A stretch of DNA of 32,000 nucleotides, from the NCBI GenBank assembly GCA_041659405.1, contig JBAZYK010000003.1:60001-92000 (forward strand). The letters are read 5' to 3'. Source of the stretch: Candidatus Altimarinota bacterium. GTDB lineage: Bacteria > Patescibacteriota > Gracilibacteria > UBA1369. Each line of letters begins with the position of its first letter. Position 1 is the first letter of the stretch. Under the pieces are notes generated by a model that saw only the letters and a list, made by a program, of their open reading frames with translations, searched no databases and was not told where the DNA came from. Shown here piece after piece: positions 5,999 through 26,884 of this stretch. A program made the translations under genes and the position numbers.

Positions 5999-6074
5999 GC
6001 TCAGGTTGTGAATACCTACTGAGCACATCCGGGGTAGGGGCCCTGTGTGCGAAGGAGGTATTCACAACCTGAGC
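5999..6074 (+). repeat. Long-stem hairpin element, copy 1 (fusA 5' UTR)
   Basis: 19-bp perfect arms GCTCAGGTTGTGAATACCT/AGGTATTCACAACCTGAGC, an A.G mismatch, tandem G.A, inner stem GCACA/TGTGC, and loop TCCGGGGTAGGGGCCCTG at 6028-6045. Confidence 0.9.
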
Positions 6075-6078
6075 CAAC

Positions 6079-6099
6079 TAATTACTAATTCTTAATTAA
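6079..6099 (+). repeat. Tandem heptamer leader (TAATTAC TAATTCT TAATTAA) upstream of fusA
   Basis: 7-nt periodicity ending 7 nt before the ATG. Confidence 0.85.
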
Positions 6100-6106
6100 A
6101 TAAACC

Positions 6107-8185
6107 ATGTCCGTCGACCTTAGTAAACTTCGCAACTTTGGTATTATCGCGCATATTGATGCCGGTAAAACCACTACCACCGAACGTATTCTTTTCTATA
6201 CCGGTAAAAATTACAAAATCGGTGAAGTGCATGAAGGTGCTGCCACAATGGACTGGATGGAACAGGAACGTGAACGCGGAATTACAATTACCTCCGCCGC
6301 TACAAGCTGCGCCTGGAAAGATTGCCGCTACAACATTATTGATACCCCCGGGCACGTAGACTTTACAGCCGAAGTAGAACGCTCACTCCGCGTACTTGAT
6401 GGAGGTGTTGTTGTTTTCGACGGCTCACAGGGTGTAGAACCTCAATCCGAAACAGTATGGCGCCAAGCTGATAAATACTCGGTTCCCCGCATGGCCTTTG
6501 TAAACAAAATGGACAAACTTGGTGCTGACTTTTACATGAGCTTACAATCTATTTTCGATCGTCTTAGTAAAGAAGCCGTTGCCATTCAACTTCCTATCGG
6601 TGAAGAATCAACTTTTATGGGTGTTATTGATCTCGTCCTTCAAAAAGCTTTCACCTTTGAAGGCAAACACGGTGAAATCATCAAAGAAATCCCAATTCCG
6701 GAAGACATGAAAGATAAGGTTCAGGAATATCGTCATCGTTTAATGGAAAAAGTGGCTGAATGTAATGACGACCTGACTGATAAATATCTCCGTGGAGAAG
6801 AATTAACAGTTGAAGAAATCAAGCGTGGTATGCGCAACGCAGTAGTGAAAAACCAACTTTACCCGGTATTTTGTGGATCCGCCCTTGCTAACAAAGGTGT
6901 TCAACTTGTATTGGATGGCGTAAATGAATATCTTCCTTCTCCTTTGGATATCGCCGCTGTTAAAGGAACAAATCCGGACACCGGACTGGAAGAAGAACGT
7001 AACATGGAAGAAAATCAACCATTCTCCGCTTTGATCTTTAAGATCATGACTGATCCTTTCGTTGGAAAACTCGCTTATTTCCGTGTTTACTCCGGCAAAC
7101 TAACTTCCGGAAGTTACGTTTTAAACAGTTCAACCGGCAACAAAGAACGTATTAGCCGTTTGATTCAGATGCATGCCAACTTACGTGAAGAAATCAAAGA
7201 AGTACACGCAGGTGATATTGCCGCAACCGTAGGTCTTAAAGGAACCTTCACCGGCCACACACTTTGCGACGAAGACAAGCCAATTATCCTTGAATCAATC
7301 ACCTTCCCTGAACCGGTTATCCAAATTGCGATTGAACCAAAGACTAAAGCCGATCAGGAAAAAATGGGTATCGCTCTGCAAAAACTTGCCGAAGAAGATC
7401 CAACCTTCCAGGTTAAAACTCATGAAGAAACCGGACAAACACTTATTGCCGGTATGGGAGAACTTCATCTGGATATTATCGTTGATCGTATGCGCCGTGA
7501 ATTTAAAGTGGAAGCCAACATCGGTCGTCCACAGGTAGCTTACCGTGAAACCATCACGACCGAAGTTAAGGCGGAAGAGAAATACGTTAAACAATCAGGT
7601 GGTCGTGGTCAATATGGTCACGTTATGATCCGCTTGATGCCAAATGAACCGGGCAAGGGTTACGAATTTGTGAATAAAGTCGTTGGAGGTAAAATTCCTC
7701 GTGAATTCATTCCGGCCGTAGATAAAGGTATTAAAGAAGCAACAACTCGTGGGATTTTGGCCGGATACCCTGTAGTAGACGTCAAAATTGAACTTTATGA
7801 TGGTTCTTACCATGATGTGGATTCCAACGAATTGGCATTTAAAATTGCCGGTTCTATGGCCTTCCAAAAAGGGGCAAGAGCTGCCGGTCCGGTTATTCTT
7901 GAACCAATCATGAAAGTGGAAGTTACTTCTCCTGAAGAATTTTTTGGAGATGTAATGGGTAACTTAAGTTCACGCCGTGGCCAAATTTACGAAACAACCA
8001 ACCGCGGTATGGCTAAAGTTATTCACTCCCGCGTTCCGCTTTCCGAAATGTTTGGTTACGCAACCGATCTTCGTTCTATGACTCAAGGCCGCGCCGCTTA
8101 CACCATGGAATTTGATCACTACGAAAAAGTTCCGGCAAACGTTGCCGAAAAGATCATCGCAGAAAGGACTGCAGGAAAGGCGTAA
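6107..8185 (+). CDS. fusA: Elongation factor G
   Basis: [13 protein letters not shown]1 motif, DTPGHVDF, 692 aa. Confidence 0.98.
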
Positions 8186-8222
8186 AAATTCCCTTGCATT
8201 GCTGATTTTTTTCCGATAATAT
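8184..8222 (+). promoter_or_regulatory. sigma70-like promoter of tuf (AAAAATTCCC-TTGCAT-17 nt-TAATAT)
   Basis: TTGCAT at 8194-8199 and TAATAT at 8217-8222. The 18-mer AAAAATTCCCTTGCATTG is identical to 23258-23275. Confidence 0.6.
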
Positions 8223-8247
8223 CCTTTCGCATTTCTTCAAAATGCAT

Positions 8248-8257
8248 TGCTCTTTAA
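8248..8257 (+). promoter_or_regulatory. boxA-like sequence TGCTCTTTAA in the tuf leader, flanked by hairpins at 8229-8245 and 8260-8275
   Basis: Matches the first 10 nt of the E. coli rrn boxA (TGCTCTTTAACAA). Confidence 0.4.
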
Positions 8258-8325
8258 TTGGCGGAAAGATCCGCCTAAGCACTTACTCTCAACTAATCTT
8301 AATTACTAATTCATAATTCTTTAAT

Positions 8326-9510
8326 ATGGCAGACGTATTTCAAAGAACAAAGACACACGTAAACGTTGGTACTATCGGCCACGTAGACCACGGCAAGACA
8401 ACTTTAACAGCTGCAATCACAATGTATTGCGCTACTAAAGGCCTGGCTAAAGCTCGCAAATATGATGAAATTGACAATGCTCCGGAAGAAAAGGCTCGTG
8501 GTATTACAATTGCTACATCCCATCAGGAATACGAAACTGAAAAACGTCATTATGCTCACGTTGATTGTCCGGGGCATGCCGATTACGTTAAGAACATGAT
8601 TACCGGTGCCGCTCAAATGGATGGCGCAATCCTCGTAGTTTCCGCTGCAGACGGTCCTATGCCACAAACTCGTGAACATATCCTTTTGGCTAAACAGGTT
8701 AACGTTCCTTATATCATCGTGTTCATGAACAAGATGGACATGGCTGATCCTGAAATTGCTGAACTTTCCGAAATGGAAGTTCGTGAACTTCTTAAGAAAT
8801 ATGGTTTCGACGGCGACAAGACTCCATTCATCAAAGGTTCTGCTCTTAAAGCTATGGAAAACCCAACTGATCCTGCTGCTACAAAATGCATCCAGGACCT
8901 TCTCGACGCATTAGATAGCTGGGTTCCTGATCCAGTACGTGAACTCGACAAACCATTCTTGATGTCAGTTGAAGATGTATTCTCCATCAAGGGTCGCGGT
9001 ACGGTAGCTACAGGTCGTATCGACAAAGGTATCGTTAAGATCAATGAAGAAGTTGAAATCGTTGGTATTCTCCCAACTCGCAAGGTAATTGTTACCGGCG
9101 TTGAAATGTTCAAGAAATTACTTGATCAGGGTCAAGCTGGTGATAACGTTGGTCTTCTCCTCCGTGGTGTTGAACGTGAAGAAATTGTTCGTGGACAGGT
9201 TGTCTGCAAACCGGGAACAATCAAACCACACACTAAATTCGAAGGACAAGTTTATATTTTGACTAAAGAAGAAGGTGGACGTCATACTCCATTCTTCAAA
9301 GGCTACAAACCACAATTCTATATCCGTACAACAGATGTAACTGGTGCGGTAGAACTTCCACCGGGTGTGGAAATGGTTATGCCGGGTGATGATATTAAGA
9401 TGGTTATTACACTTGGATCTCCAATCGCTCTTGATGAAAGCACTCGTTTTGCCATCCGTGAAGGTGGACGCACAGTTGGTGCCGGAGTTATCACAAAAAT
9501 CCTGGAGTAA
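8326..9510 (+). CDS. tuf: Elongation factor Tu
   Basis: [25 protein letters not shown] motifs; 394 aa. Confidence 0.98.
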
Positions 9511-9555
9511 GATCTCGCAAAGCGAGATCCGCGCCTGCCCCAAGCAGGCATAGCA
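9511..9555 (+). repeat. Two-hairpin module, copy a: GATCTCGC-AAA-GCGAGATC followed by CGCGCCTGCCCCAAGCAGGCATAGCA
   Basis: Begins directly after the tuf stop. The conserved second hairpin is GCCTGC/GCAGGC followed by ATAGCA. Confidence 0.8.
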
Positions 9556-9571
9556 AAAAAAATAACACAGT

Positions 9572-9649
9572 GTTCAGTTTGAGGAATATCTTCTGAACAC
9601 ATCCGGGGTAGGGGCCCTGTGTGTTCAGAAGATATTCCTCAAACTGAAC
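9572..9649 (+). repeat. Long-stem hairpin element, copy 2 (tuf|rpsJ)
   Basis: 30-bp perfect stem (GTTCAGTTTGAGGAATATCTTCTGAACACA and its complement); loop at 9602-9619. Confidence 0.92.
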
Positions 9650-9673
9650 TTATTACATTAATTCCTTGAAAAC

Positions 9674-9997
9674 ATGGCTAGTAAACAGAAAATCCGAATC
9701 AAGATTCAAGCGTATGATCACAAAGTGATCGATGATTCTGCAAAACTCATCATCGAAACTGCTGAACGCACCGGTGCTATCGTAGCAGGTCCGATTCCTC
9801 TGCCAACTAAAATTGAAAAGTTCACAGTGAATCGTTCAACTTTCGTTCATAAGACCGCCCGTGACCAGTTTGAAATGAGAACTCACAAGAGATTGATTGA
9901 TATTACCGAGAGTACACCTAAGACAATTGATTCGTTGACTAACCTAAGTTTACCAGCCGGTGTTGATATCGAAATTAAAATGTTGACAAGCGACTAA
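9674..9997 (+). CDS. rpsJ: 30S ribosomal protein S10
   Basis: [15 protein letters not shown]… pattern, and it is first in the S10 gene order. Confidence 0.97.
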
Positions 9998-10206
9998 AAG
10001 AACGCTAAAACTATTACGCTCACTTTTCAGAGCACAAGTCCCGAAAGGGCAAACAAAACAATATGTTATATCGGAGTCGAGGGCATGCGCGAGCGCAAGC
10101 GAGTGCATCTAAAAAGTTCGCCTAGCGAACACCTTATGAGGTCCAACCTTAAAGGTCGTCTTCACTTCACTGTCTCGAATTTACGAGACAATAACCTCTA
10201 AACACT

Positions 10207-10788
10207 ATGACCGGTATACTCGGAAGAAAATTAGGCATGACGAGAGTCATACAAGACGACGGCCGCGTGATCCCAATGACTGTGATCCAGTGTGAACCTA
10301 ATACAATCACACAGATCAAGACAGTCGAAAAAGATGGATATCCGGCGATAGTCCTGGGTTTTGACGCATTAAAAAATCCTTCCAAAAATCACAAATATCA
10401 TTTTTCCCGTGAATTCAGAATCAAAGGAGATGAGAGTCTGGAAAAAGGAACTCAGATTACAGTAGAAATATTTAAGGAAGGTGAAGAAGTTATCATTACC
10501 GGAACTTCAAAAGGTAAAGGTTTCCAGGGTGTAGTAAAAAGATGGCATATGGCAGGTGGTCCCGCATCACATGGTTCCCATTTCCATCGCGAACCGGGTT
10601 CTGTAGGTGCTCGTGCTAAACCGGGTAAAATCCTTCGTGGAAAACATTTACCGGGGCACATGGGTAATCAAACTAAAACCATTAAATCTTCTGTAGTATT
10701 CCTGGATCAAAAGAAAAATCTAATCGGTATAAAGGGCGCAGTTCCGGGAAGTATTAACACTATGATTACTCTACGCAAACTCGCTTAA
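10207..10788 (+). CDS. rplC: 50S ribosomal protein L3
   Basis: GILGRKLGMTRV… N-terminus and gene order. Confidence 0.96.
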   Translation: MTGILGRKLGMTRVIQDDGRVIPMTVIQCEPNTITQIKTVEKDGYPAIVLGFDALKNPSKNHKYHFSREFRIKGDESLEKGTQITVEIFKEGEEVIITGTSKGKGFQGVVKRWHMAGGPASHGSHFHREPGSVGARAKPGKILRGKHLPGHMGNQTKTIKSSVVFLDQKKNLIGIKGAVPGSINTMITLRKLA

Positions 10789-10816
10789 TCACAAATTCCA
10801 AAAAGTCCGAGATCAC

Positions 10817-10837
10817 TAATTACTAATTATTAATTGA
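10817..10837 (+). repeat. Tandem heptamer leader (TAATTAC TAATTAT TAATTGA) upstream of rplD
   Basis: 7-nt periodicity ending 7 nt before the GTG start. Confidence 0.85.
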
Positions 10838-10844
10838 ACTAAAG

Positions 10845-11588
10845 GTGGCTAATATTACTCTCTACAATCAGCAAGGTCAGAAAAAAGGCGATATTCAGGT
10901 TTCTGATGTGATCTTCGGTGCAAAATTCAATCAAGATCTCGTTCATCAGGCTTTAGTACGTCAGTTGGCAAACGCCCGCGTTTCTGTAATTGCCAATACG
11001 TTAACTAAATCCGAAGTTCGTGGTGGTGGACGTAAACCATGGAAACAAAAGGGAACCGGACGTGCTCGTCAGGGTTCAATCAGAAATCCACACTGGAAAG
11101 GTGGCGGTGTTGCCTTTGGACCAAAGAATAACCGCAACTATAAGCAGATGATGCCAAAGAAACAAAGACGTTTAGCTCTTTTCTCTGCTCTCTCTGCAAA
11201 ATTCCAGGATGGAAAGATTATGGCCGTTGATAATTTTGAAGCTCCGGCAGTTAAGACCAAAACTTTCGTAGAAATGCTCCACAAGTTGCCGATTGAAAAA
11301 GATGTATTGTTCTTGATTCCAAGTAAAAACGAACTCATTACTAAATCCACTCGAAATATTCCATTTGTAAAAACCATGTTGGTGAATTATCTGAACATTG
11401 CAGATTTACAACGCTATGATCAGGTAGTCTTTTTAGAAGAAGCTCTTGGTAAAATGGAACAACTTTTCTTATCAGAAAGAAGTTCCGAATCCGAGTCATC
11501 AGAAGAAGAAAGTGTTAAAGAACCCAAAAAAGCTAAGGAACCAAAGAAGGTTGCCAAGAAAAAGACGACAACTAAAAAGGTTGCCTAA
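10845..11588 (+). CDS. rplD: 50S ribosomal protein L4 (GTG start; Ser/Glu/Lys-rich C-terminal tail)
   Basis: …RGGGRKPWKQKGTGRARQGS… motif and gene order. Confidence 0.95.
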   Translation: MANITLYNQQGQKKGDIQVSDVIFGAKFNQDLVHQALVRQLANARVSVIANTLTKSEVRGGGRKPWKQKGTGRARQGSIRNPHWKGGGVAFGPKNNRNYKQMMPKKQRRLALFSALSAKFQDGKIMAVDNFEAPAVKTKTFVEMLHKLPIEKDVLFLIPSKNELITKSTRNIPFVKTMLVNYLNIADLQRYDQVVFLEEALGKMEQLFLSERSSESESSEEESVKEPKKAKEPKKVAKKKTTTKKVA

Positions 11589-11635
11589 TCCCCTCCTGAA
11601 AAAATCATAATTCTACATCATAAATCCTAATTTAA

Positions 11636-11941: not shown

Positions 11942-11970
11942 TCACGAAATAATTTATTAATTGCACTAAG

Positions 11971-12837: not shown

Positions 12838-12915
12838 GTCCAGATTGTGGCATGTCATCTGAGCACAGCCGGGGTAGGGGCCCTGTGTGCGAAGAGGATA
12901 TGCCACAATCTGGAC
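12838..12915 (+). repeat. Long-stem hairpin element, copy 3 (rplB|rpsS)
   Basis: Arms GTCCAGATTGTGGCAT…/…ATGCCACAATCTGGAC with one G-U pair, one A.G mismatch and tandem G.A; loop GCCGGGGTAGGGGCCCTG at 12868-12885. Confidence 0.9.
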
Positions 12916-12946
12916 AAACAACACTAATTATTAATTACTAACAGAC

Positions 12947-13783: not shown

Positions 13784-13865
13784 GTGTTCAGTTTGTGGAA
13801 TGTTGGCTGAACATATCCGGGGTAGGGGCCCTGTATGTGAAGACAATATTCCACAAACTGAACAC
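13784..13865 (+). repeat. Long-stem hairpin element, copy 4 (rplV|rpsC)
   Basis: Arms GTGTTCAGTTTGTGGAATGTTG/CAATATTCCACAAACTGAACAC (one G-U pair), a G.A mismatch and tandem G.A; loop at 13816-13833. Confidence 0.9.
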
Positions 13866-14611: not shown

Positions 14612-14632
14612 TAACTACTAATTACTAATTGA
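14612..14632 (+). repeat. Tandem heptamer leader (TAACTAC TAATTAC TAATTGA) upstream of rplP
   Basis: 7-nt periodicity ending 6 nt before the ATG. Confidence 0.85.
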
Positions 14633-15556: not shown

Positions 15557-15574
15557 GCAAAGCGAACGAGTGTC

Positions 15575-15601
15575 CGCGCCTGCCACCAAGCAGGCATAGC
15601 A
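15575..15601 (+). repeat. Two-hairpin module, copy b: conserved part CGCGCCTGCCACCAAGCAGGCATAGCA
   Basis: Preceded by an irregular hairpin (GACAC…GTGTC, 15546-15574) that spans the rpsQ stop codon. Confidence 0.8.
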
Positions 15602-16017: not shown

Positions 16018-16061
16018 AGGCAAGCACAGCTTGCCCGCGCCTGCCACTAAGCAGGCATAGC
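16018..16061 (+). repeat. Two-hairpin module, copy c: GGCAAGC-ACA-GCTTGCC followed by CGCGCCTGCCACTAAGCAGGCATAGCA
   Basis: Begins 2 nt after the rplN stop; same architecture as copy a. Confidence 0.8.
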
Positions 16062-16116
16062 AGAAAACTATCCCGCAAGGGATATCAACCAAGAATTATT
16101 ATCAAAAAACTATTCT

Positions 16117-17068: not shown

Positions 17069-17095
17069 CAATTACTATTACTAATTATTAATTGA
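17069..17095 (+). repeat. Tandem heptamer leader (CAATTAC TATTAC TAATTAT TAATTGA) upstream of rpsN
   Basis: 7-nt periodicity (one 6-nt unit) ending 6 nt before the ATG. Confidence 0.85.
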
Positions 17096-17326: not shown

Positions 17327-17420
17327 GAAATTTGAGCACAGCTCAAATTTCCTTCCGGCCTGAGCGAAGCGAAGAAACGCCGGAATAAAAATTAACATTC
17401 TGCCCTAAGCAGGCATAGCA
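17327..17420 (+). repeat. Hairpin series after rpsN: an 11-bp stem (17327-17351), TTCCGGC…GCCGGAA (17353-17385), and two-hairpin-module conserved part copy d, CTGCCCTAAGCAGGCATAGCA (17400-17420)
   Basis: Inverted repeats read directly. Copy d lacks the CGCGC prefix. Confidence 0.7.
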
Positions 17421-17931: not shown

Positions 17932-17983
17932 CACAATATCCAGCCAATTACACATTCAACTATTAATTACTAATTGAACCAAA

Positions 17984-19024: not shown

Positions 19025-19059
19025 CAATTACTCATTATTAATTACTAATTACTAATTGA
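19025..19059 (+). repeat. Tandem heptamer leader, 5 units (CAATTAC TCATTAT TAATTAC TAATTAC TAATTGA), upstream of rpsE
   Basis: 7-nt periodicity ending 1 nt before the ATG. Confidence 0.9.
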
Positions 19060-19060
19060 A

Positions 19061-19804
19061 ATGGCAAAACCTCCATTTAACAGAAAAGGCCAAGCTCCAA
19101 TGCGCGAAGTAAAAGAGTTCGAAGAAGAGGTAATACAAATCGATCGTGTAACTCGCGTAGTTAAAGGAGGCCGCAGACTTCGTTTCCGCGCTACCGTTGT
19201 AATTGGTAACCGCAAAGGCAAAGTTGGCGTTGGTATCGGTAAATCAACTGAAGTTCAAGGCGCAATCAAAAAAGCTATCGCTCAAGCAAAGAAATCCCTG
19301 ATCGAAGTGCCAATGATTGGTCAAACCATTCCTCATCGTGTTGAGATGAAATTCAAGAGCGCTAAACTTATTATTATGCCAGCTCGTCCAGGTACTGGTA
19401 TCATTGCCGGTGGACCACTACGCAAGGTAATTGAACTTTCCGGAGTTAAAGATATTTTGAGCAAATGTTTAGGTGCAAAAAATCGTTTGAATAACAGCCA
19501 GGCGGCCATCAACGCTTTAGCGGAACTTAGAACAATGCCTTGGTTAAAGAAAAAAGTTGCTACTCCTGTTGCAGTCGCTCCAGGCGCACATGTCGCTCCA
19601 GTTGCACACGCTGTTCCAGGGACACACGTAAACACAGCTGCACACACAACTCCTGCACACGCCGCTCCGGTTGCACGCACTGCTCCAGTCGCACACACAA
19701 CTCCGGCACACGCTGCTCCAACTACACATCACGCTCCAGCTCCAGCTGCACATCCAGCTCCTAAAGCTCCTGTAGCTGATCCAGCTAAGAAAACTCAAGA
19801 GTAA
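19061..19804 (+). CDS. rpsE: 30S ribosomal protein S5 with a ~80-aa His/Ala/Pro/Thr repeat C-terminal extension
   Basis: …IDRVTRVVKGGRRLRFRATVVIGN… core. The tail starts around aa 165. Confidence 0.95.
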   Translation: MAKPPFNRKGQAPMREVKEFEEEVIQIDRVTRVVKGGRRLRFRATVVIGNRKGKVGVGIGKSTEVQGAIKKAIAQAKKSLIEVPMIGQTIPHRVEMKFKSAKLIIMPARPGTGIIAGGPLRKVIELSGVKDILSKCLGAKNRLNNSQAAINALAELRTMPWLKKKVATPVAVAPGAHVAPVAHAVPGTHVNTAAHTTPAHAAPVARTAPVAHTTPAHAAPTTHHAPAPAAHPAPKAPVADPAKKTQE

Positions 19805-19840
19805 TAAAATCTATTTAATCTAATGTAACGCATAATTCCA

Positions 19841-20326
19841 ATGGACAAATTACAAAATTTAAAAAGCAACCCAGGTGCCCGCAAGAAAAGGAAAACTGTC
19901 GGTCGCGGCAATGGATCCGGACATGGATCTTATTCAACTCGCGGTGGCAAAGGTCAAACTGCCCGCTCCGGTAGTGGCTACAAACCCGGCTTTGAAGGTG
20001 GTCAAACTCCACTTTATCGCAAGATGCCAAAATTGAAAGGCTTCAACAACATCAACCACGTTGAATATCAGGTGGTAAATGTTGAAAGTCTAAATCTTTT
20101 TGACGACAACGAAGAAATCAATGTAGTTAAACTCTACGAGAAAAAACTCATCAGCCACAAAGACCGACCTGTTAAAATTCTTGGTGATGGTGAACTTACT
20201 AAAAAACTTACAGTTAAAGTAGATCGTGTTTCCTCATCTGCAAAAGAAAAAATCGAAAAAGCAAAAGGCACGGTTCACGAACTTATGAAAAAAGAAGTAA
20301 AGGAAGATAAAGAAGAAAAAAAGTAA
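19841..20326 (+). CDS. rplO: 50S ribosomal protein L15
   Basis: …GRGNGSGHGSYSTRGGKGQTARSG… motif. Confidence 0.96.
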   Translation: MDKLQNLKSNPGARKKRKTVGRGNGSGHGSYSTRGGKGQTARSGSGYKPGFEGGQTPLYRKMPKLKGFNNINHVEYQVVNVESLNLFDDNEEINVVKLYEKKLISHKDRPVKILGDGELTKKLTVKVDRVSSSAKEKIEKAKGTVHELMKKEVKEDKEEKK

Positions 20327-20343
20327 AACAGGATTACGCCTCG

Positions 20344-20381
20344 CAAATCATTTCAAATCCTGCCTCCTAAATCCTAAATCC
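20344..20381 (+). repeat. Heptamer-type leader, second flavour (CAAATCA…CAAATCC TGCCTCC TAAATCC TAAATCC), upstream of secY
   Basis: 7-nt periodicity, followed by A7 and then the ATG. Confidence 0.7.
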
Positions 20382-20388
20382 AAAAAAA

Positions 20389-21687: not shown

Positions 21688-21689
21688 TA

Positions 21690-21771
21690 GAATTTAGGTT
21701 GGAATGCATGCTCTTCATGCACAGGGCCCCTACCCCGGATGCATTCAGATCACACATTCCAACCTAAATTC
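21690..21771 (-). repeat. Long-stem hairpin element, copy 5 (secY|adk), inverted orientation
   Basis: The loop appears as its reverse complement CAGGGCCCCTACCCCGGA at 21722-21739. Outer stem is 17 bp perfect. G-U and G.A mismatches form only when the minus strand is read. Confidence 0.9.
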
Positions 21772-21791
21772 ATATCATTAACTCAATTAAG

Positions 21792-22430
21792 GTGGATTTA
21801 GTTTTATTTGGAATTCAGGGCTCAGGGAAGGGTACGCTCGGCAAAGTACTCGCTGAAAAATATAATCTGCAGATTTTTGAAACAGGTTCCGCTTTAAGAA
21901 AACTTTCCCAGGAAACTACGCCACTTGCCCAAAAAGTTAAAAGCATTATTGAAGCCGGACATCTTGTTCCGACTGAAGTTGTCATGGAAATTATTGAAGA
22001 TTTCATGAATCACCTTCAACCGGGATCAAATGTTTTATTTGATGGAATTCCCAGAAAAATGGATCAGGCTGAAGCTTTTGATCAGCTCATGCAAAAACAC
22101 AACCGTAACTTTCTTGGACTTTTAATTGATGTATCTGAAGAAGTTGCGATTAAAAGACTTTCAACTCGCCGACTTTGCAAAAATTGCAAAACGGTTTTTC
22201 CTGCAACATACACACAAAACACCTGTGAAAAATGTGGAGGAGAATTGATTACCAGAACCGATGACAACCCGGAAAGTATCAAAATTCGTCTAAAGGCCTA
22301 TTTTGAAGAAACCATGCCGGTGATTGAAAATTACAAGAAAGGCAGTAAAATGATTTCGATTGATGGCACCGAAAATATTGAAAAAGTTCAGATTTTGGCT
22401 TTTGAAGCCCTTCAAGGAAAATTTAATTAA
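21792..22430 (+). CDS. adk: Adenylate kinase (GTG start; Zn-type lid CxxC…CxxC)
   Basis: GIQGSGKGT P-loop and CKNCKTVF…CEKCGGEL lid. Confidence 0.95.
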   Translation: MDLVLFGIQGSGKGTLGKVLAEKYNLQIFETGSALRKLSQETTPLAQKVKSIIEAGHLVPTEVVMEIIEDFMNHLQPGSNVLFDGIPRKMDQAEAFDQLMQKHNRNFLGLLIDVSEEVAIKRLSTRRLCKNCKTVFPATYTQNTCEKCGGELITRTDDNPESIKIRLKAYFEETMPVIENYKKGSKMISIDGTENIEKVQILAFEALQGKFN

Positions 22431-22436
22431 TTTCTA

Positions 22437-23213
22437 ATGAAGATTTGGAAAGAAGGCAACCTGCGTATTGGCATTAAAGATTCACAGGAAATTCAAGCCA
22501 TGCGTGAAGGAGGCAAAATTTTAGGAATAATTTTACATGAACTTGAACAAATGGTGGTTCCCGGAATCACTCTTTTGGAGCTTGATAAAAAAGCCGCAGA
22601 GATGATGGCAAATCATCATGTTAAGCCATCTTTTTTAGGATATTACGGCTTTCCAAATGTACTTTGCATCAATGTAAATGATGTAGTCGTTCACGGAATC
22701 CCGGATAAAACCGAGTTACATGAAGGTGACATTGTAACAATCGATTGCGGCGTAATTCATAAGGATTTTCAGACCGATTCAGCAATTCAAAAAGGAGTTG
22801 GCAAAATCACTCCGGAACTCACCAAATTTTTAAACACCGCCCAAAAAGCTTTGGACAAAGCAATTGAAACTGCAAAACCGGGAATCCGCATTCGTACTAT
22901 TAGCGGAGTTATTCAGGATATTGTCGAAAAAAACGGTTATAGTGTTGTACGGGATTTAGTTGGTCATGGCATCGGACACAAAATGCACGAAGATCCACCG
23001 GTTCCAAATTTTCGTGATGAAGCTGGCCCAATGCTGCAAACCGGCATGACAATTGCCATTGAACCGATCATCTGCATGGGCAATCGCAAAGTTAAAACCT
23101 TGCGTGATGGCTGGACCATGGTAAGCGCAGACGGATCATATGCAACGCAGGTTGAGCACACCATTGCCATTACCCAAAAAGGAGCTGAAATTTTAACCAA
23201 AAGACCGGAATAA
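22437..23213 (+). CDS. map: Methionine aminopeptidase type I
   Basis: …VVHGIP…DIVTIDCG…GHGIGHKMHEDP…EPI…EHT… metal-ligand pattern. Confidence 0.96.
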   Translation: MKIWKEGNLRIGIKDSQEIQAMREGGKILGIILHELEQMVVPGITLLELDKKAAEMMANHHVKPSFLGYYGFPNVLCINVNDVVVHGIPDKTELHEGDIVTIDCGVIHKDFQTDSAIQKGVGKITPELTKFLNTAQKALDKAIETAKPGIRIRTISGVIQDIVEKNGYSVVRDLVGHGIGHKMHEDPPVPNFRDEAGPMLQTGMTIAIEPIICMGNRKVKTLRDGWTMVSADGSYATQVEHTIAITQKGAEILTKRPE

Positions 23214-23257
23214 AGAACAAGGCAAAAGGAACCTTCACAATCACTACAAAAAGCCCA

Positions 23258-23296
23258 AAAAATTCCCTTGCATTGTTAAAAAATGTCATGTAAAAT
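23258..23296 (+). promoter_or_regulatory. sigma70-like promoter of infA (AAAAATTCCC-TTGCAT-17 nt-TAAAAT)
   Basis: TTGCAT at 23268-23273 and TAAAAT at 23291-23296. The 18-mer is identical to the tuf promoter. Confidence 0.6.
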
Positions 23297-23416
23297 CCTA
23301 ACGCTCTTTTGAATTTTTTTAGAGAGAAAACAGCATACCCAAGGCACGAAACGTAACGGAGTGTCGCACTAAAAAGGAATCGCAAAAGCGAAACCAATCA
23401 TGCCTAATCTGTACTT

Positions 23417-23734
23417 ATGGCCAAAGAGGTAATCGAACTGATGGGTGTAGTGGTAGAGGCGCTTCCAAACGCCACCTTCCGCGTTAAACTCACGGACGAA
23501 AGGTACCCAAATCATATCGTACTCGCCCACGTTTCAGGCAGAATGAGAATCAATTATATTCGAATTCTACCGGGCGATAAGGTCACTATTGAATTGACAC
23601 CATACGATTTGAACAAAGGAAGAATCATTTTCCGTCACAAGGAAGGTTCAAGAATGGAACAAACACCAAGTGTCACTGCTGAAACGAAAGTTGAACCAAG
23701 TCCCGAAGCTGTAAAAGAGCCTGAAAAAAACTAA
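23417..23734 (+). CDS. infA: Translation initiation factor IF-1 with a ~30-aa C-terminal extension
   Basis: …[17 protein letters not shown]…[19 protein letters not shown]…. Confidence 0.95.
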
Positions 23735-23754
23735 ATATCGTTAATCCAACCATC

Positions 23755-23868
23755 ATGAAAGTTCGCTCATCTGTAAAAAAAATCTGTGATAAATGCAAAG
23801 TAATCCGCAGAAAAAACGTGGTTCGCGTGATCTGTATAACTAAAAAACATAAGCAACGACAGGGTTAA
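23755..23868 (+). CDS. rpmJ: 50S ribosomal protein L36 (37 aa; not in the ORF track)
   Basis: [37 protein letters not shown], translated by hand. Confidence 0.93.
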
Positions 23869-23885
23869 GAACTATAAAGGTAACT

Positions 23886-23965
23886 GTGTTCAGTTGTGGA
23901 ATGTTGGCTGAACATATCCGGGGCAGGGGCCCTGTGTGTGAAGACAATATCCCAGAACTGAACAC
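23886..23965 (+). repeat. Long-stem hairpin element, copy 6 (rpmJ|rpsM), partly decayed
   Basis: Same arms as copy 4 but with G.G and A.C mismatches. Loop variant TCCGGGGCAGGGGCCCTG at 23917-23934. Confidence 0.85.
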
Positions 23966-23968
23966 AAC

Positions 23969-23989
23969 TAATTACTAATTATTAATCAT
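23969..23989 (+). repeat. Tandem heptamer leader (TAATTAC TAATTAT TAATCAT) upstream of rpsM
   Basis: 7-nt periodicity ending 5 nt before the ATG. Confidence 0.85.
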
Positions 23990-23994
23990 AAAAA

Positions 23995-24378
23995 ATGGCA
24001 ACAGTAGCTCGTATCTCAGGCGTTACTCTCCCTCAACAAAAAAGAGTTGAAATCGGTTTGATGGCTATTTATGGGGTAGGAAGAAGCCTTAGCAAGAAAA
24101 TTGTAAAAGAGGCCAACGTTAACCCTGATACTAGAGTTAAAGACTTAACTGAAGAAGAAGTCAGCCGCATTCGTGAAATTATCTCCAAGACATCAACAGA
24201 AGGTGATCTTCGTCGTAAAATTCAAATGGACATCAAGCGTCTTCAGGAAATCGGTTCATACCGTGGTTTCCGTCATCGCAAGGGTTTACCTGTTCGCGGT
24301 CAACGCACACGTTCCAATGCCCGCACCAGAAAAGGCAAGAAGAAGACAGTGGCTAACAAGAAGGTTGTTACTAAGTAG
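23995..24378 (+). CDS. rpsM: 30S ribosomal protein S13
   Basis: …[25 protein letters not shown]…. Confidence 0.97.
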
Positions 24379-24404
24379 TAACAAATATTAAAATCAAAGT
24401 TTGT

Positions 24405-24482
24405 GTTCAGATTGTGGAATATTGGCTGAACACAGCCGGGGTAGGGGCCCTGTGTGTGAAGACAATATTCCACAATCTGAAC
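24405..24482 (+). repeat. Long-stem hairpin element, copy 7 (rpsM|rpsK)
   Basis: Arms GTTCAGATTGTGGAATATTG/CAATATTCCACAATCTGAAC, a G.A mismatch and tandem G.A; loop GCCGGGGTAGGGGCCCTG at 24435-24452. Confidence 0.9.
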
Positions 24483-24507
24483 CTACTAATTACTAATTAA
24501 CATAACC

Positions 24508-25002
24508 ATGGCAGACGAGAAGACCATAGACACAAAATCAGAGAAAGCAGAAAGCGCAAAAGCTTCCGAGGGTAAAGCTGAAACTAAAAAAACTGGTAAG
24601 CCGGAAGTAAAAGCTGTTAAATCCACCAAAGGCAAGAAAAAGGCAAAGCGTCGCCTTTTACAAGAAGGTAAAGCTTATATTCAGGCCAGTTATAACAACA
24701 CCATTGTTACAATTACAGATATGAATGGTGAAGTTATCGCTTGGAGCAGCGCCGGTTCAAATGGTTTTAAGGGTGCTAAAAAAGCGACTCCTTATGCAGC
24801 CCAGGTTTCTGCTGAAAATGCCATCACAAAAGCTAAAGTTTATGGTTTGGAACGAATTCATGTATTTATCAAAGGAGTAGGAACAGGCCGTGAACAATCC
24901 ATCCGTGGTTTACAAGCAGGTGGAGTGAATATTGAGTCAATAACTGATCTAACACCGGTTACACACAATGGTTGCCGTCCAAGAAAATCCCGAAGAGTAT
25001 AA
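24508..25002 (+). CDS. rpsK: 30S ribosomal protein S11 with a ~35-aa Lys-rich N-terminal extension
   Basis: …GKAYIQASYNNTIVTITDMNGEVIAWSSAG…. Confidence 0.96.
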   Translation: MADEKTIDTKSEKAESAKASEGKAETKKTGKPEVKAVKSTKGKKKAKRRLLQEGKAYIQASYNNTIVTITDMNGEVIAWSSAGSNGFKGAKKATPYAAQVSAENAITKAKVYGLERIHVFIKGVGTGREQSIRGLQAGGVNIESITDLTPVTHNGCRPRKSRRV

Positions 25003-25013
25003 CATTATCCCAC

Positions 25014-25048
25014 CAATCACTCATTACTAATTATTAATTACTAATTGA
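25014..25048 (+). repeat. Tandem heptamer leader, 5 units (CAATCAC TCATTAC TAATTAT TAATTAC TAATTGA), upstream of rpsD
   Basis: 7-nt periodicity ending 6 nt before the ATG. Confidence 0.9.
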
Positions 25049-25054
25049 AAAAAA

Positions 25055-25666
25055 ATGTCTAGATATACTGGTCCAAAATGTCGTTTATGCCGCCGCGAAG
25101 GAGTTTCCTTATGCGGGAAGGAAAAATGCGCTCTAAAAAAGAAGAATTATATTCCAGGTATGCATGGCCCAAAAGGCAGTTTTGCAAAGAAATCTGAATA
25201 TGCTCGTCAACTTCGTGAAAAACAAAAGTTGAAGAGACTTTTTGGTATTACGGAACGCCAACTTTCCAACTATTTTGAAAAAGCCGGAAAAATGAAAGAT
25301 ATCACCGGTGATGCACTTTTAAAACTACTTGAATATCGTCTTGATAACGTAATTTATCGCTCCGGTATTGCTAAAACAAGAAACCAGGCTCGCCAAATGG
25401 TAAATCATGGATTATTCAAGGTGAATAACATCAAGATTAATATTCCTTCCCTTCAAATGAAGGCTGGCGACAAATTCGAAGCAATTGCCCGCATTAAAAA
25501 ATCAAAACTTTTTGCTGAAGTTGAAAAGCAAAAATATGCTCCTGCTAAATGGATCAAGGTTGATTACAAAACTTTAATGGGCGAAGTAACTCGTCCAATC
25601 GAAAAGGAAGAACTTGAAAGTATCATCCAAAGCAACTTAATCGTTGAGTTCTACTCCAAAGCGTAA
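25055..25666 (+). CDS. rpsD: 30S ribosomal protein S4 (Cys-rich N-terminal Zn-type)
   Basis: MSRYTGPKCRLCRREG… N-terminus and an S4 domain pattern. Confidence 0.97.
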   Translation: MSRYTGPKCRLCRREGVSLCGKEKCALKKKNYIPGMHGPKGSFAKKSEYARQLREKQKLKRLFGITERQLSNYFEKAGKMKDITGDALLKLLEYRLDNVIYRSGIAKTRNQARQMVNHGLFKVNNIKINIPSLQMKAGDKFEAIARIKKSKLFAEVEKQKYAPAKWIKVDYKTLMGEVTRPIEKEELESIIQSNLIVEFYSKA

Positions 25667-25691
25667 ATTTTAATTAAAAATTATAAAAACT

Positions 25692-25773
25692 GTGTTCGGA
25701 TTTCTGTACGTTTTCTGAGCACATCCGGGGTAGGGGCCCTGTGTGCGAAGGAAATGTACAGAAATCTGGACAC
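25692..25773 (+). repeat. Long-stem hairpin element, copy 8 (rpsD|rpoA)
   Basis: Arms GTGTTCGGATTTCTGTACGTTTT/GAAATGTACAGAAATCTGGACAC with four G-U/U-G pairs on the + strand, plus tandem G.A; loop at 25724-25741. Confidence 0.9.
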
Positions 25774-25777
25774 TCAA

Positions 25778-25801
25778 CCATTACTAATTACTAATTACTA
25801 A
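25778..25801 (+). repeat. Tandem heptamer leader (CCATTAC TAATTAC TAATTAC TAA) upstream of rpoA
   Basis: 7-nt periodicity ending 13 nt before the ATG. Confidence 0.85.
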
Positions 25802-25814
25802 CCCCCTTTCTAGA

Positions 25815-26792
25815 ATGCATCAGATTCAAGAAGAAATCGGCATCCCAAAGATTAAAACTGAAAGAATCAGTAATAATCATGCGATTTTTACGGTTAGTCC
25901 ACTTCCACCCGGATATGGAATGACAGTTGGTAATTCTTTCCGCCGAGTACTTTTATCTTCTTTGCCTGGTTCATGTGTCACCGGGATCAAAATCGATGGT
26001 ATAAGTCATGAATATTCAACAATTAAAGGAGTAAAAGAAAGTGTATTGGATATCACTTTAAATTTGAAACTTTTACATATCAGAAAAACCACAAAAGAAC
26101 CTTCCATTTGCACATTACATATCACAAAAGAAGGTCCGGTTTATGCCAAAGATATCAAATGCCCAAGTGATGTTGAAGTTTTAAATGGCGATCAATATAT
26201 TACAACCGTTGAAAAGGGCTGCAAACTCAATGCGGAACTTCGTGTTGAAAAAGGTGTTGGTTATATTCCGGCTCATTACCGTGTAAAAGAAGAAGGCGCT
26301 GACCCTGCAATGATTGTTATTGATGCGATCTACTCACCGGTTAAAAAGGTTCGTTATGATGTGGAAGCAACTCGTGTAGGTCAAATGACCAACCTTGATA
26401 AATTGAGCATGGAAGTAATGACAGATGGCTCAATCACGCCAGAAGATGCTGTAAAATTCTCTTCCAATATTCTTCAATCTTACTTCAATCTTTTCAACCA
26501 GGAAAATGCCATGGTTGAAGCTGATTACATGTCAGATTTCAAGAAGATCGTTGAAAAAGAAAAAGCTGAAGAGAAAAACAAGCCGGCTCAGGAAAGTTAT
26601 ACTCCTATAGAAATCCTTGGTTTCTCACCAAGAACACTCAATGCTTTGATCAATGGTGGCATTGGTTCTATTGAACAATTATCAAAATGTACCGAAAGTA
26701 AATTGACTAATCTCCGTGGTTTTGGTAAAAAGGCACTCACAGAGGTAAAAAATGCCCTCAAAGCCAAAAATATGACTCTCTCTGAGGAATAA
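25815..26792 (+). CDS. rpoA: DNA-directed RNA polymerase subunit alpha
   Basis: …PLPPGYGMTVGNSFRRVLLSSLPG… N-terminal domain, a C-terminal HhH-like …LGFSPRTLNAL…, and gene order. Confidence 0.96.
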   Translation: MHQIQEEIGIPKIKTERISNNHAIFTVSPLPPGYGMTVGNSFRRVLLSSLPGSCVTGIKIDGISHEYSTIKGVKESVLDITLNLKLLHIRKTTKEPSICTLHITKEGPVYAKDIKCPSDVEVLNGDQYITTVEKGCKLNAELRVEKGVGYIPAHYRVKEEGADPAMIVIDAIYSPVKKVRYDVEATRVGQMTNLDKLSMEVMTDGSITPEDAVKFSSNILQSYFNLFNQENAMVEADYMSDFKKIVEKEKAEEKNKPAQESYTPIEILGFSPRTLNALINGGIGSIEQLSKCTESKLTNLRGFGKKALTEVKNALKAKNMTLSEE

Positions 26793-26806
26793 TAAGAAAT
26801 TACTGT

Positions 26807-26884
26807 GTTTGGATTGTGGAATGTTGGCTGAACACATCCGGGGTAGGGGCCCTGTGTGTGAAGACAATATTCCACAATCCAAAC
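26807..26884 (+). repeat. Long-stem hairpin element, copy 9 (rpoA|rplQ)
   Basis: Arms GTTTGGATTGTGGAATGTTG/CAATATTCCACAATCCAAAC. There is a compensatory CA>TG / TG>CA change relative to copies 4 and 7. Loop at 26837-26854. Confidence 0.9.

Follow-up and report, generated by a model that had tools for sequence, protein, structure and literature searches.

Hairpins at gene junctions

The window, by which we mean the whole 32,000-nt stretch analysed, spans a ribosomal-protein supercluster. The longest inverted repeats of the window, by a wide margin, are ten hairpins of ~80 nt (76-83 nt). They belong to a palindromic dispersed repeat family, lineage-specific, in one uncultured Peregrinibacteria/Gracilibacteria (CPR) species (NCBI MAG GCA_041664325.1), and copies are present in four independent assemblies. 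All ten were confirmed at the positions originally predicted, and the gene junctions that had been named were correct according to Pfam-annotated gene calls. Apex types A to C are described below.

Copy 1, 5999..6074, + strand: 32 nt 5′ of the fusA start codon, behind a 203-aa ORF of no assigned function; type A; -53.2 kcal/mol, z = -8.9; 91.5 bits; a conserved GT at 5997-5998 lies just 5′ of the stem
Copy 2, 9572..9649, + strand: tuf/rpsJ; type A; perfect 30-bp stem; -58.6 kcal/mol, z = -12.6
Copy 3, 12838..12915, + strand: rplB/rpsS; type A, first base G; -55.0 kcal/mol, z = -9.2
Copy 4, 13784..13865, + strand: rplV/rpsC; type A
Copy 5, 21690..21771, - strand: secY/adk; type A; the sole copy inverted relative to its flanking genes
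Copy 6, 23886..23965, + strand: rpmJ/rpsM; decaying; -42.1 kcal/mol, z = -6.3; 82.9 bits
Copy 7, 24405..24482, + strand: rpsM/rpsK; type A, first base G
Copy 8, 25692..25773, + strand: rpsD/rpoA; type A; -54.0 kcal/mol
Copy 9, 26807..26884, + strand: rpoA/rplQ; type A
Copy 10, 30942..31024, + strand: divergent region 5′ of trmD; type B loop, without tandem G.A; -41.7 kcal/mol, z = -11.5; 64 bits

Elsewhere in this genome, beyond the window, four further copies were found, giving 14 copies in 72.9 kb:

rpoB/ssb junction
rpmH 5′ UTR, type B loop
yidC/jag junction
upstream of a PHP gene

The sampled sequence (~73 kb) amounts to ~5-7% of the genome if its size is like that of published Peribacteria, 1.25 Mb (PMC4736985).

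No copy lies inside a gene (0/14), and 13 of the 14 read in the same direction as the downstream gene (p = 0.002). Placement is stereotyped, the hairpin standing between the upstream stop codon and the AT-rich leader of the next gene, with 2-41 nt (median 26) between the 3′ end of the hairpin and the start codon. The heptamer leader itself is independent of the hairpin, being found at many hairpin-free genes and in hairpin-less relatives. A promoter conserved with the related locus L099 lies upstream of copy 12. Hairpins precede 13 of 47 core information-processing gene starts and 1 of 35 others (Fisher p = 0.003; the categories were defined post hoc). Placement in the ribosomal-protein supercluster, as first described, is too narrow for the copies at rpoB/ssb, rpmH, yidC/jag and PHP; the preference is for core information-processing genes generally.

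That the hairpins are not intrinsic terminators was borne out. No U-tract follows any copy and a terminator scan called none of them, while the operon ends in a canonical terminator with a GC stem and T-run at 28329-28364. Within the 73 kb we saw no transposase, RAYT or other mobilising gene. The copies have neither consistent target-site duplications nor a common target tetranucleotide.

Fold and architecture

RNA folding of the ten window copies gave one long hairpin each, with energies of -42 to -59 kcal/mol and z = -6.3 to -12.6. Whether modelled as RNA or as DNA, the element strand gives a better fold than its complement; for copy 5 the energies are -49.2 kcal/mol on the - strand and -37.2 on the + strand. 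From base to tip, the stem consists of a conserved foot (GTGTTCAG...CTGAAC), a middle part of ~20 bp in which sequence varies freely while complementarity is kept, and a module of fixed order: a 1x1 purine mismatch, 2-3 bp, tandem G.A/A.G and a 5-bp ACAYA/URUGU helix. The folds reproduced the described distribution of the mismatches. The tandem G.A/A.G and the purine mismatch are present in copies 1, 3, 4, 5, 6, 7 and 9, in copy 8 a U-G takes the place of the single mismatch, and copies 2 and 10 are fully Watson-Crick in the module region, where in copy 2 such pairs replace both tandem G.A and single mismatch.

The apex is GC-rich and falls into three distinct types (A, 11 copies; B, 2; C, 1); it is invariant in 10 of the 14 copies. 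In the window there are eight exact occurrences of the core CCGGGGTAGGGGCCCTG and a ninth, in copy 6, with a single mismatch, where shuffled sequences lead one to expect 0.00. The exact 17-mer occurs about once per 5 kb with a strong strand bias, and in the sequence searched it was never found outside a hairpin. Its description as an 18-nt loop needs correction, since most of it is predicted to be paired, as a 2-nt bulge, a 6-bp stem and a 4-nt loop; this putative apical stem never varies. The divergent type C copy differs in apex and arms and retains the G.A/A.G, A.G and ACACA module. We considered copy 10 as a decayed copy and rejected this, because its loop TCCGCCGTTGCGCCCTG recurs exactly in the rpmH 5′ UTR copy; copy 10 therefore represents a second subtype.

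Covariation of the arms

An alignment of 13 copies had 95.8% of its stem cells paired, and 22 of 35 pairs changed on both sides, in agreement with the compensatory changes proposed earlier. None of 500 shuffles matched the real alignment, and slid controls reached at most 57% paired. When the near-identical copies 6, 7, 9 and 12 were dropped, the signal survived: 21 of 35 pairs changed on both sides, 95.0% of cells were paired and again 0/500 shuffles did as well. The stem cells comprise 327 Watson-Crick, 14 G.U, 3 A.C and 4 purine-purine combinations. As 8 of the 14 G.U pairs fall in one column, the G.U excess reflects few independent events. The single-strand structure of the element is under constraint.

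Arm identity among copies averages 65%, with a minimum of 38%. The arms of copies 1, 5 and 8, thought at first to be unrelated to the rest, proved to be diverged homologues (GTGTTCAG-NTT...), 38-75% identical to other copies. Those of copy 8 are 42-64% identical to other copies yet perfectly paired, with three G.U pairs, and the strongly diverged copies 0, 1, 5 and 8 all pair perfectly. Copy 4 is a member of the youngest subfamily, its arms being 85-95% identical to those of copies 6, 7, 9 and 12. The young copy 6, in contrast, is decaying: its loop has a T>C change, its 5′ arm has lost 1 nt, and it contains mismatches that are not compensated. Sense orientation of 13/14 copies, stereotyped spacing to the start codon, 14 G.U against 3 A.C and the invariant apex are consistent with an RNA or binding role.

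Distribution among relatives

A search of Rfam 15 found no family matching the hairpins. A covariance-model search of 79 related Peregrinibacteria ribosomal-protein loci (1.27 Mb) gave no match, and neither did a filters-off search of the closest relatives (L013, L009, L067 and L099). A structural descriptor scan found the architecture in this organism only. In the closest relative, L013 (RpoA 91% identical, ~78% nucleotide identity), five orthologous junctions are empty, with spacers of 3-69 nt where those of the window measure 93-132 nt including the hairpin. The sites of copies 7 and 9 are among those empty in L013, and at the copy 5 junction, secY/adk, the spacer of the closest relative is 3 nt. 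No RpoA with an identity between 91% and 100% was found among 5.8 billion proteins. L099 has no hairpin of the family at the rpmH 5′ UTR or yidC/jag; relatives do carry other small hairpins at rpmJ/rpsM, the rpmH 5′ UTR and yidC/jag. Absence from the 79 loci, together with the empty short spacers of the closest relative, indicates a recently spread dispersed repeat rather than an ancient regulator. The comparison shows that the copies were inserted into existing short spacers after the split from the closest sampled relative.

Copies at distant loci also resemble one another. In its arms, copy 12 matches copy 4, on another contig, at 95% identity, and its apex is the type B of copy 10; judged from its sequence, copy 12 is a chimera. 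Short-read contigs end within hairpins, Logan L089 in copy 7 and Logan L005 in copy 9.

Comparison with known repeats

Repeat families that form stem-loops are common and are often confined to one species (PMC2267715). ERIC/IRU (127 bp) is, like the present family, an imperfect palindrome in transcribed intergenic regions that is co-transcribed with the flanking genes and forms a long RNA hairpin; it alters mRNA stability, and the effect depends on its orientation (PMC2229807). The hairpins described here differ from ERIC in length (~80 nt, not 127), share no sequence similarity with it, lack TA ends and target-site duplications, are restricted to a single species and are invariant in the apex, not the arms. 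Correia/NEMIS/CREE elements of Neisseria are likewise short palindromic repeats inserted beside genes, and their transcribed hairpins are RNase III substrates, bound or cut by the enzyme with changed expression of neighbouring genes (PMC2229807, PMC2649163). Their conserved 24-26-bp terminal inverted repeats, TA duplication, IHF site and promoter-generating ends have no counterpart here. REPINs, which are associated with RAYTs and are thought to be recognised as ssDNA, share with our family an extragenic ~70-110 nt hairpin of inverted halves, compensatory changes on both sides and the absence of target-site duplications (PMC3116915). In REPINs, however, it is the end 16-mers that do not change and the central spacer that does, the reverse of what we observed; moreover, our family has no GTAG/CGTC tag, the available sequence holds no RAYT and the host is a CPR bacterium. 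The stem-loop families of Cozzuto et al. 2008 are also intergenic repeats that share a predicted secondary structure, many of them previously undescribed and possibly active as RNA (PMC2267715); that catalogue covers 40 cultivated genomes and does not contain the present family. Among small palindromic repeats the family is unusual because its tip is invariant while the stem varies but stays paired. In tests for membership of REP, REPIN, classical MITE and terminator classes, the family fell outside each.

Interpretation

Three roles had been suggested for the hairpins, and the mobile, REP/MITE-like one is the best supported. It is favoured by the 79 loci lacking the family, the empty sites at five junctions, the 95% arm identity of distant copies, the chimeric copy and the breaks of short-read assemblies inside hairpins. 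The other two, an RNA processing or stabiliser structure and a protein-binding loop, are plausible. We somewhat favour a palindromic element like ERIC, Correia and REPINs that is co-transcribed into mRNA and is recognised in its folded single-stranded form; in the mRNA it probably serves as a hairpin for RNase III-type processing or for stability. Counting against this reading are the absence of any mobilising gene from the 73 kb, the lack of consistent target-site duplications or a shared target tetranucleotide, and an invariant apex with varying arms, which reverses the conservation of REPINs and MITEs; perfectly paired diverged copies beside a decaying young copy 6 fit selection on each copy at least as well as selfish spread. 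It is possible, though we hold it only tentatively, that the hairpins are host-selected cis-acting RNA punctuation, in which a dedicated RNA-binding or processing protein recognises the invariant G-rich apex and tandem G.A and either cleaves or shields the polycistronic transcript at selected junctions or insulates the following cistron's translation, and selection keeps every copy, the mode of spread being secondary. Such a role would suit the sense bias (13/14) and stereotyped place between stop codon and leader, the enrichment at core, highly expressed genes, perfect stems even at 38-60% arm identity under an unchanging apex, the predominance of G.U over A.C, the module kept by the type C copy and the other small hairpins of relatives. 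Against it, all relatives express the same operons with spacers of 3-30 nt and without the element, and the G.U excess shrinks to few events. The inverted copy 5 keeps on its own strand the exact loop, tandem G.A, A.G mismatch and G.U pairs though the mRNA carries the complement, copy 6 is decaying, and the orientation bias is inseparable from replication-strand bias.

The persistence of these features in copy 5 whatever the direction of transcription would also be expected of a purely selfish DNA element, moved as ssDNA by an HUH/Y1 (RAYT or IS200/IS605-like) transposase that recognises hairpin and apex on the lagging-strand template, the RNA hairpin being a by-product. The structured strand is the sense strand of genes co-oriented with most others, and would be the lagging-strand template if genes are co-directional with replication (Ton-Hoang 2010, as far as it is related in PMC3116915); target-site duplications are absent, the element strand folds better as ssDNA, and REPIN hairpins show compensatory changes too. 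We nevertheless consider it improbable, as the left flanks lack the shared target tetra- or pentanucleotide on which transposases of this family depend, the 5′ end has no GTAG/CGTC tag, the element is twice as long as a REP, conservation is lower at the ends than in the apex and no Y1 transposase was seen within 73 kb. A DNA signal in the apex, such as an uptake sequence, a Chi-like signal or the site of a binding or modification protein, with the hairpin incidental, could account for the frequency and strand bias of the 17-mer, for an apex that is GC-rich in a 40% GC genome and includes CCGG, GGCC and GGGCCC, and for its conservation in copy 5. It leaves the 35-bp covarying stem, the fixed G.A module and three apex types unexplained, and the motif never occurs outside the hairpin, making this very improbable. 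Terminators or attenuators setting transcript levels along the operon would be stable and intergenic, as the hairpins are, but ten within an essential operon, with neither U-tracts nor calls in the terminator scan and with a canonical terminator in use at the operon end, are scarcely credible.

On the favoured reading of a co-transcribed palindromic element, copies would have spread by copy-and-paste or gene conversion and would still recombine with each other. A sequence-specific factor would read the apex and G.A module of the folded single strand, the stem serving only as a helix of fixed length. Because nearly all copies lie sense in transcribed spacers, each would place a ~35-bp hairpin in the mRNA, after the stop codon and ahead of the next leader. 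By analogy with ERIC, Correia and REP elements, the likeliest effect would be an RNase III-type cleavage site and/or an exonuclease barrier, through which segments of the polycistronic mRNA would come to differ in stability.

Existence and folding of the hairpin family

The window corresponds to positions 61,300-93,299 of ENA contig ERZ27249449:k141_700304 and is identical to contig JBAYLB010000001.1 of the NCBI MAG GCA_041664325.1. On inspection, its sequence matched the ten hairpins of the original prediction, and the gene junctions named for them agreed with Pfam-annotated gene calls. The 17-nt core CCGGGGTAGGGGCCCTG occurred eight times exactly and once with one mismatch in the window, against 0.00 expected, and the ten longest inverted repeats of the window are the ten hairpin copies. 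Folded as RNA, every window copy gave a single long hairpin; energies ranged from -42 to -59 kcal/mol and z-scores from -6.3 to -12.6.

To find extra copies, a covariance model of the hairpin family (R1) was run with filters off. Four matches were obtained beyond the window in the same organism.

Copies of the hairpin beyond the window
L006 5170-5251, rpoB/ssb junction, R1 match
JGI contig L002, yidC/jag junction (copy 11), R1 match
JGI contig L002, rpmH 5' UTR (copy 12), R1 match
L093 11842-11925, in another 10 kb of the second ENA contig, upstream of a PHP-domain gene, divergent copy, R1 match of 27 bits

The total is thus 14 copies in 72.9 kb of this genome. None of the 14 lies inside a gene, as predicted for an intergenic element; placement in the ribosomal protein supercluster alone was too narrow a description, since copies also lie at rpoB/ssb, the rpmH 5' UTR, yidC/jag and the PHP gene. 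The motif had not been placed in any RNA family, and no Rfam 15 family matched the window at gathering thresholds. A permissive Rfam 15 scan of the window returned only generic miRNA-precursor-like hairpins; none of these scored above 22 bits, far short of their gathering scores of at least 90. ARAGORN recognised neither tRNA nor tmRNA.

Anatomy of the element

In alignment the copies are homologous over their entire length, with a size of 76-83 nt and a stem of about 35 bp. The foot, GTGTTCAG...CTGAAC, is moderately conserved, and so are the terminal 8 nt; its 5' GT is present in all of 13 copies but copy 5, and the matching 3' AC in five only. Above the foot come about 20 bp of freely varying stem, a 1x1 purine-purine mismatch, 2-3 bp, the G.A loop, a 5-bp helix and a GC-rich apex. 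The tandem G.A/A.G is a symmetric 2x2 loop, 5'-YUGAR/YGAAG-3', and the helix next to the apex reads ACAYA/URUGU. Three discrete apex types were found.

Apex types
Type A, KCCGGGGTAGGGGCCCTG, 11 copies, 10 of them exact
Type B, TCCGCCGTTGCGCCCTG, 2 copies (copy 10 and the rpmH copy)
Type C, TCCCGCAGCAAAGCGAGGACTG, 1 copy

The apex is invariant in 10 of the 14 copies; arms average 65% identity between copies, with a minimum of 38%. What had been described as an 18-nt loop is invariant in type A, but most of it is predicted to pair, forming a 2-nt bulge, a 6-bp stem and a tetraloop. The type C copy has its own arms and its own apex, but retains the ACACA helix, the tandem G.A and the A.G mismatch. 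Because this module is kept despite other arms and another apex, it marks the conserved core of the element.

Covariation and strand polarity

In a 13-copy alignment 95.8% of the cells are paired, and 22 of the 35 pairs show two-sided changes. None of 500 shuffles matched this, and slid registers gave at most 57% pairing. The stem cells comprise 327 Watson-Crick pairs, 14 G.U, 3 A.C and 4 purine-purine combinations. Covariation survived the removal of the near-identical copies 6, 7, 9 and 12, with 21 of 35 pairs still changed on both sides, 95% of cells paired and again 0/500 shuffles matching. The RNA fold of copy 5 was -49.2 kcal/mol for the element strand against -37.2 kcal/mol for the complement, and DNA folds of element strand and complement gave -28.6 and -23.2, -27.6 and -22.4, and -24.5 and -16.9 kcal/mol. 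The stem covaries and the element strand folds better; the constraint therefore acts on a single strand that folds and has a defined polarity, either as RNA or as DNA.

Distribution among related genomes

RpoA placed the organism in Candidatus Peregrinibacteria/Peribacteria ('Gracilibacteria' for some depositors), the nearest genome having 91% RpoA identity. CPR genomes are very small and gene-dense, and repeats are expected to be rare in them. R1 found no match over 1.27 Mb comprising 79 related ribosomal protein loci, nor in the closest relatives with filters off. A descriptor that ignores sequence and asks for the tandem G.A, a 5-bp helix and a long outer stem detected the architecture in the window's organism only. 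A clade-wide conserved element was rejected, as the exact loop pattern was absent from 185,579 species-representative genomes; in JGI metagenomes it was found only in a same-organism contig and as two chance matches in 70% GC contigs. A phage or plasmid origin was rejected, as no similarity was found in phage, plasmid or viral collections.

Contig L002 was considered as a second species and rejected, its YidC being 100% identical to a protein on another contig of the window's ENA assembly. Exact-protein look-ups of RpsM, RpmJ, RpsS and RpsJ for sister-species copies, in which compensation in place might be seen, returned the same strain only. Because a collection of 5.8 billion proteins contains no RpoA with an identity between 91% and 100%, the hairpin family is known from one species-level lineage only. 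The related species L008 (90-98% nucleotide identity) is represented by a contig spanning hairpin-free junctions only. Strain SNPs in contig L091, 18 in 5.9 kb, all fall outside hairpins.

The closest relative, L013, has about 78% nucleotide identity to the window. Its secY/adk spacer is 3 nt, compared with 105 nt in the window; rpsM/rpsK and rpoA/rplQ have short spacers consisting of the AT-rich leader alone, and the rpsD/rpoA and rpmJ/rpsM spacers contain unrelated sequence. In a second relative, L099 (YidC 75% identical), the hairpin is absent at the rpmH 5' UTR and yidC/jag. Filled sites are thus matched by empty ones at five junctions in L013 and two in L099, a feature shared with classical bacterial MITEs and a sign of insertion. 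This shows the insertion history of the hairpins, which are recent and lineage-specific insertions.

Position and orientation relative to genes

Thirteen of the 14 copies in the 72.9 kb lie in sense orientation to the gene that follows (binomial p = 0.002). The distance from hairpin 3' end to the next start codon is 2-41 nt (median 26), and from the upstream stop codon to the hairpin start the median is 25 nt. A copy precedes 13 of 47 starts of core information-processing genes and 1 of 35 others (Fisher p = 0.003, with categories picked post hoc). Density in the ribosomal protein operon is about one per 2 kb; about 27 kb of sampled metabolic or unknown genes contain the PHP copy only.

On both contigs the hairpin strand coincides with the sense strand of the genes beside it, is C-rich by GC3 skew and carries the majority of genes. 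The 13:1 bias is therefore ambiguous, and fits an RNA-level role or replication-coupled ssDNA transposition alike, the latter since genes co-directional with replication have the lagging-strand template as their sense strand. GC3 skew is -0.28 to -0.30 on the ribosomal protein (majority gene) strand in the window and L093, whatever the gene orientation. Provided that replication runs in the direction of these genes, the leading strand is C-rich, a skew of the reverse sign to the usual one. In copy 5, the sole inverted copy, the exact apex is retained along with the G.A module and the G.U pairs on its own strand, although the mRNA carries the complement. This single case speaks for constraints on the element itself and not on the host mRNA.

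A promoter carried by the hairpin was rejected, promoter-like sites not being enriched (44, with 43 expected). Arms acting as guides, in the manner of guide RNA or shRNA, were likewise rejected: apart from AT-rich chance matches, no arm match of at least 13 nt was found elsewhere in 73 kb.

Leaders, other repeats and gene order

A tandem heptamer leader, (TAATTAC)n, lies directly upstream of many start codons that have no Shine-Dalgarno sequence (62 matches against 1.7 expected). It is found at genes with and without a hairpin, and also in the hairpin-free relatives L013 and L099; L008 has CATAAAT-like heptamers in its place.

(TAATTAC)n leaders in the window
679-705
6079-6098
8300-8312
10817-10836
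12925-12937
14612-14631
17075-17094
17964-17976
19025-19058
23969-23988
24487-24499
25021-25047
25778-25797
27301-27320
27761-27780

The leader resembles the intergenic TAACTGA heptamer repeats described for Beggiatoaceae (PMC4679880).

The window also has an intergenic repeat of smaller size, CCGCGCCTGCC(A/C)C(C/T)AAGCAGGCATAGCA, which forms a 6-bp GC hairpin with an ATAGCA tail. Another small variable hairpin precedes three of its four copies, and its exact 14-mer was absent from every relative fetched.

Smaller intergenic repeat in the window, all on the + strand, 20-90 nt past the stops of tuf, rpsQ, rplN and rpsN
9525-9555
15571-15601
16032-16062
17395-17420

At rpmJ/rpsM many related Peregrinibacteria carry a different conserved hairpin, GGTAGTCAGTATTCT-CCCCCC-AGAATRCTGACTACC, whose loop is C-rich and which overlaps the end of rpmJ at its stop codon; it may be an alpha-operon leader. 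The window's organism has the decaying copy 6 in its place.

C-rich-loop rpmJ/rpsM hairpins in related contigs
L033 1726-1797
L034 1906-1970
L036 2893-2965
L041 636-715
L044 8412-8483
L051 8440-8496
L058 6533-6592
L064 8462-8533

L099, the nearest relative with data, contains a small hairpin repeat not shared with the window, AGCGAGGCC-N3-4-GGCCGAGCT, at 3381-3399 and 5279-5298, in the rpmH 5' UTR and at yidC/jag, the sites of copies 12 and 11 in the window's organism. At secY/adk, the junction of copy 5, contig L067, from another relative, has an unrelated imperfect hairpin of about 150 nt (6175-6338, z = -6.0). The 209-nt rpsJ/rplC spacer of the window (9998-10206) is GC-rich and folds into several short hairpins (-62 kcal/mol, z = -5.1) with no R1 match.

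Gene order is unusual in two places: ssb lies between rpoB and rpoC (L006 5264-5911), and the rpsG-fusA interval (window 1375-5906) holds seven non-core genes, among them small ORFs of no known function, a PQ-loop protein, an MFS transporter, an opposite-strand AhpC and a 203-aa ORF. There is no rpmD (L30) between rpsE and rplO (window 19061-20326), and S5 is long, at 247 aa; L30 loss is usual in CPR bacteria. IF-1 (window 23417-23734) is 105 aa long, of which about 30 aa form a C-terminal extension. Between rpsI and trmD there are about 2.8 kb in the window and about 1 kb in L013. A 454-aa ORF beside copy 10 (window 29050-30414, - strand) resembles sigma-70/ECF factors only weakly and below threshold (E = 9e-4; 18.9 bits, the cutoff being 42.9). 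Adjoining proteins of no assigned function gave no informative Pfam or NCBIfam matches, and were rejected as candidates for a mobilising or binding factor.

Signs of recombination and ongoing copying

Copy 12 (rpmH, contig 2) shares 95% arm identity with copy 4 (rplV/rpsC, contig 1). The type B apex and 3' core of copy 12 are as in copy 10, whose arms match its own at 57% only; copy 12 is a chimera. Copy 6 is young, with arms 90% identical to copy 4, but it is decaying: it has an indel, a mutated loop and mismatches that lack compensation. In copies 2, 10 and 12 Watson-Crick pairs replace the tandem G.A, and the entire 30-bp stem of copy 2 is perfect; quasipalindrome correction by template switching would give this outcome.

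No consistent target-site duplication was found at the copies (0-4 nt, different in each), nor TA ends or a common target tetranucleotide, the left flanks ending in differing sequences. Without a transposase, the hairpins might spread by ectopic gene conversion, for which the (TAATTAC)n leader shared by most copies on their 3' side would be the seed. This would explain the constant site 5' of the leader, the orientation, the duplication-free insertion and the chimeras.

Discussion

Among the options first proposed, a REP/MITE-like hairpin is best supported, by lineage-specific insertion and empty sites, but the defining features of REPs, REPINs and MITEs are lacking. REPs are imperfect palindromes of 20-40 nt, exceeded here at 76-83 nt, and they have a conserved terminal GTAG or CGTC (PMC3733652), whereas the hairpin 5' end is GTGTTCAG; GTAG occurs within the type A apex only, and not in types B and C. 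REPINs are likewise long hairpins with compensatory changes and no duplications, but consist of a pair of inverted REPs in which the ends are invariant and the central spacer is less conserved (PMC3116915), whereas here the apex is invariant and the arms vary. Classical MITEs (Correia, ERIC, RUP) have conserved terminal inverted repeats and a target-site duplication, usually TA, which this family lacks. IS200/IS605-type ssDNA elements (PATE-like) insert 3' of a fixed tetra- or pentanucleotide, and the left flanks share none. A kink-turn has a 3-nt bulge beside its tandem G.A; the symmetric 2x2 loop has no bulge. Because the REP size and GTAG, the REPIN conservation pattern and the MITE inverted repeats, duplication and TA are all missing, the family falls outside the named classes: it is closest to ERIC and Correia elements in its probable working and to REPINs in appearance, and a member of none. 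The effect of ERIC on mRNA stability depends on orientation, and the hairpins of Correia elements serve as RNase III substrates (PMC2229807, PMC2649163). One-species stem-loop repeat families are common among cultivated bacteria (PMC2267715). A full-text literature search including CPR-group terms found no such family described in CPR or Peregrinibacteria genomes.

On balance we favour a palindromic repeat, dispersed within one lineage and of the ERIC/Correia/REPIN kind, that is recognised when folded as a single strand and is co-transcribed with its neighbours. The apex and module of the folded strand would be the recognition feature; co-transcription would place a hairpin of about 35 bp between cistrons, where it would most likely act as an RNase III-type site and/or exonuclease barrier. 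An RNA punctuation element selected by the host would also give a covarying stem and a sense bias at core genes; with the recent insertions and the evidence of copy 5, we consider it possible but less likely. Less likely still is the specific form of operon punctuation in which a sequence-specific protein reads the apex and G.A module and cuts or caps the giant ribosomal protein mRNA at chosen junctions.

A purely selfish ssDNA element moved by a Y1 transposase shares the strand polarity and orientation bias, and no transposase or RAYT (Y1 transposase) gene was found in the 72.9 kb; we regard it as improbable. A DNA sequence signal carried in the apex would account for the fixed apex, but the constraint acts on a folded strand, and such a signal is very improbable. 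Least credible of all is a terminator or attenuator, despite the long stems. Intrinsic terminators have a GC-rich stem followed by a U-tract; as originally predicted, no T-run follows any copy, and a terminator scan called none of them. This organism does have a canonical bidirectional intrinsic terminator, AAAAACCCCGC-N4-GCGGGGTTTTTT, at window 28329-28364, after rpsI and facing a convergent gene.

If punctuation is true, each mRNA segment would have its own stability and translation, in a bacterium with leaders lacking Shine-Dalgarno sequences. Such a system would be the bacterial counterpart of mitochondrial tRNA punctuation or of the protein-defined intercistronic processing of chloroplasts, with a cis element recently spread by copy-and-paste and apex types A, B and C as separate regulons.

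Short-read contigs of other samples terminate within copies 1, 7, 9 and 11. The hairpins thus break short-read assemblies inside the ribosomal protein cluster, a region used in CPR phylogenomics and binning. Ribosomal protein genes are reportedly missing from MAGs in published work, and the family is relevant to such reports. Its fixed apex, fixed non-canonical module and co-varying stem of set length separate a recognition module from a purely structural helix, and this pattern provides a concrete bait for the factor that reads the apex. An essential operon full of 80-nt hairpins that are absent in the closest relatives is a clean natural experiment on repeat invasion, tolerance and co-option.
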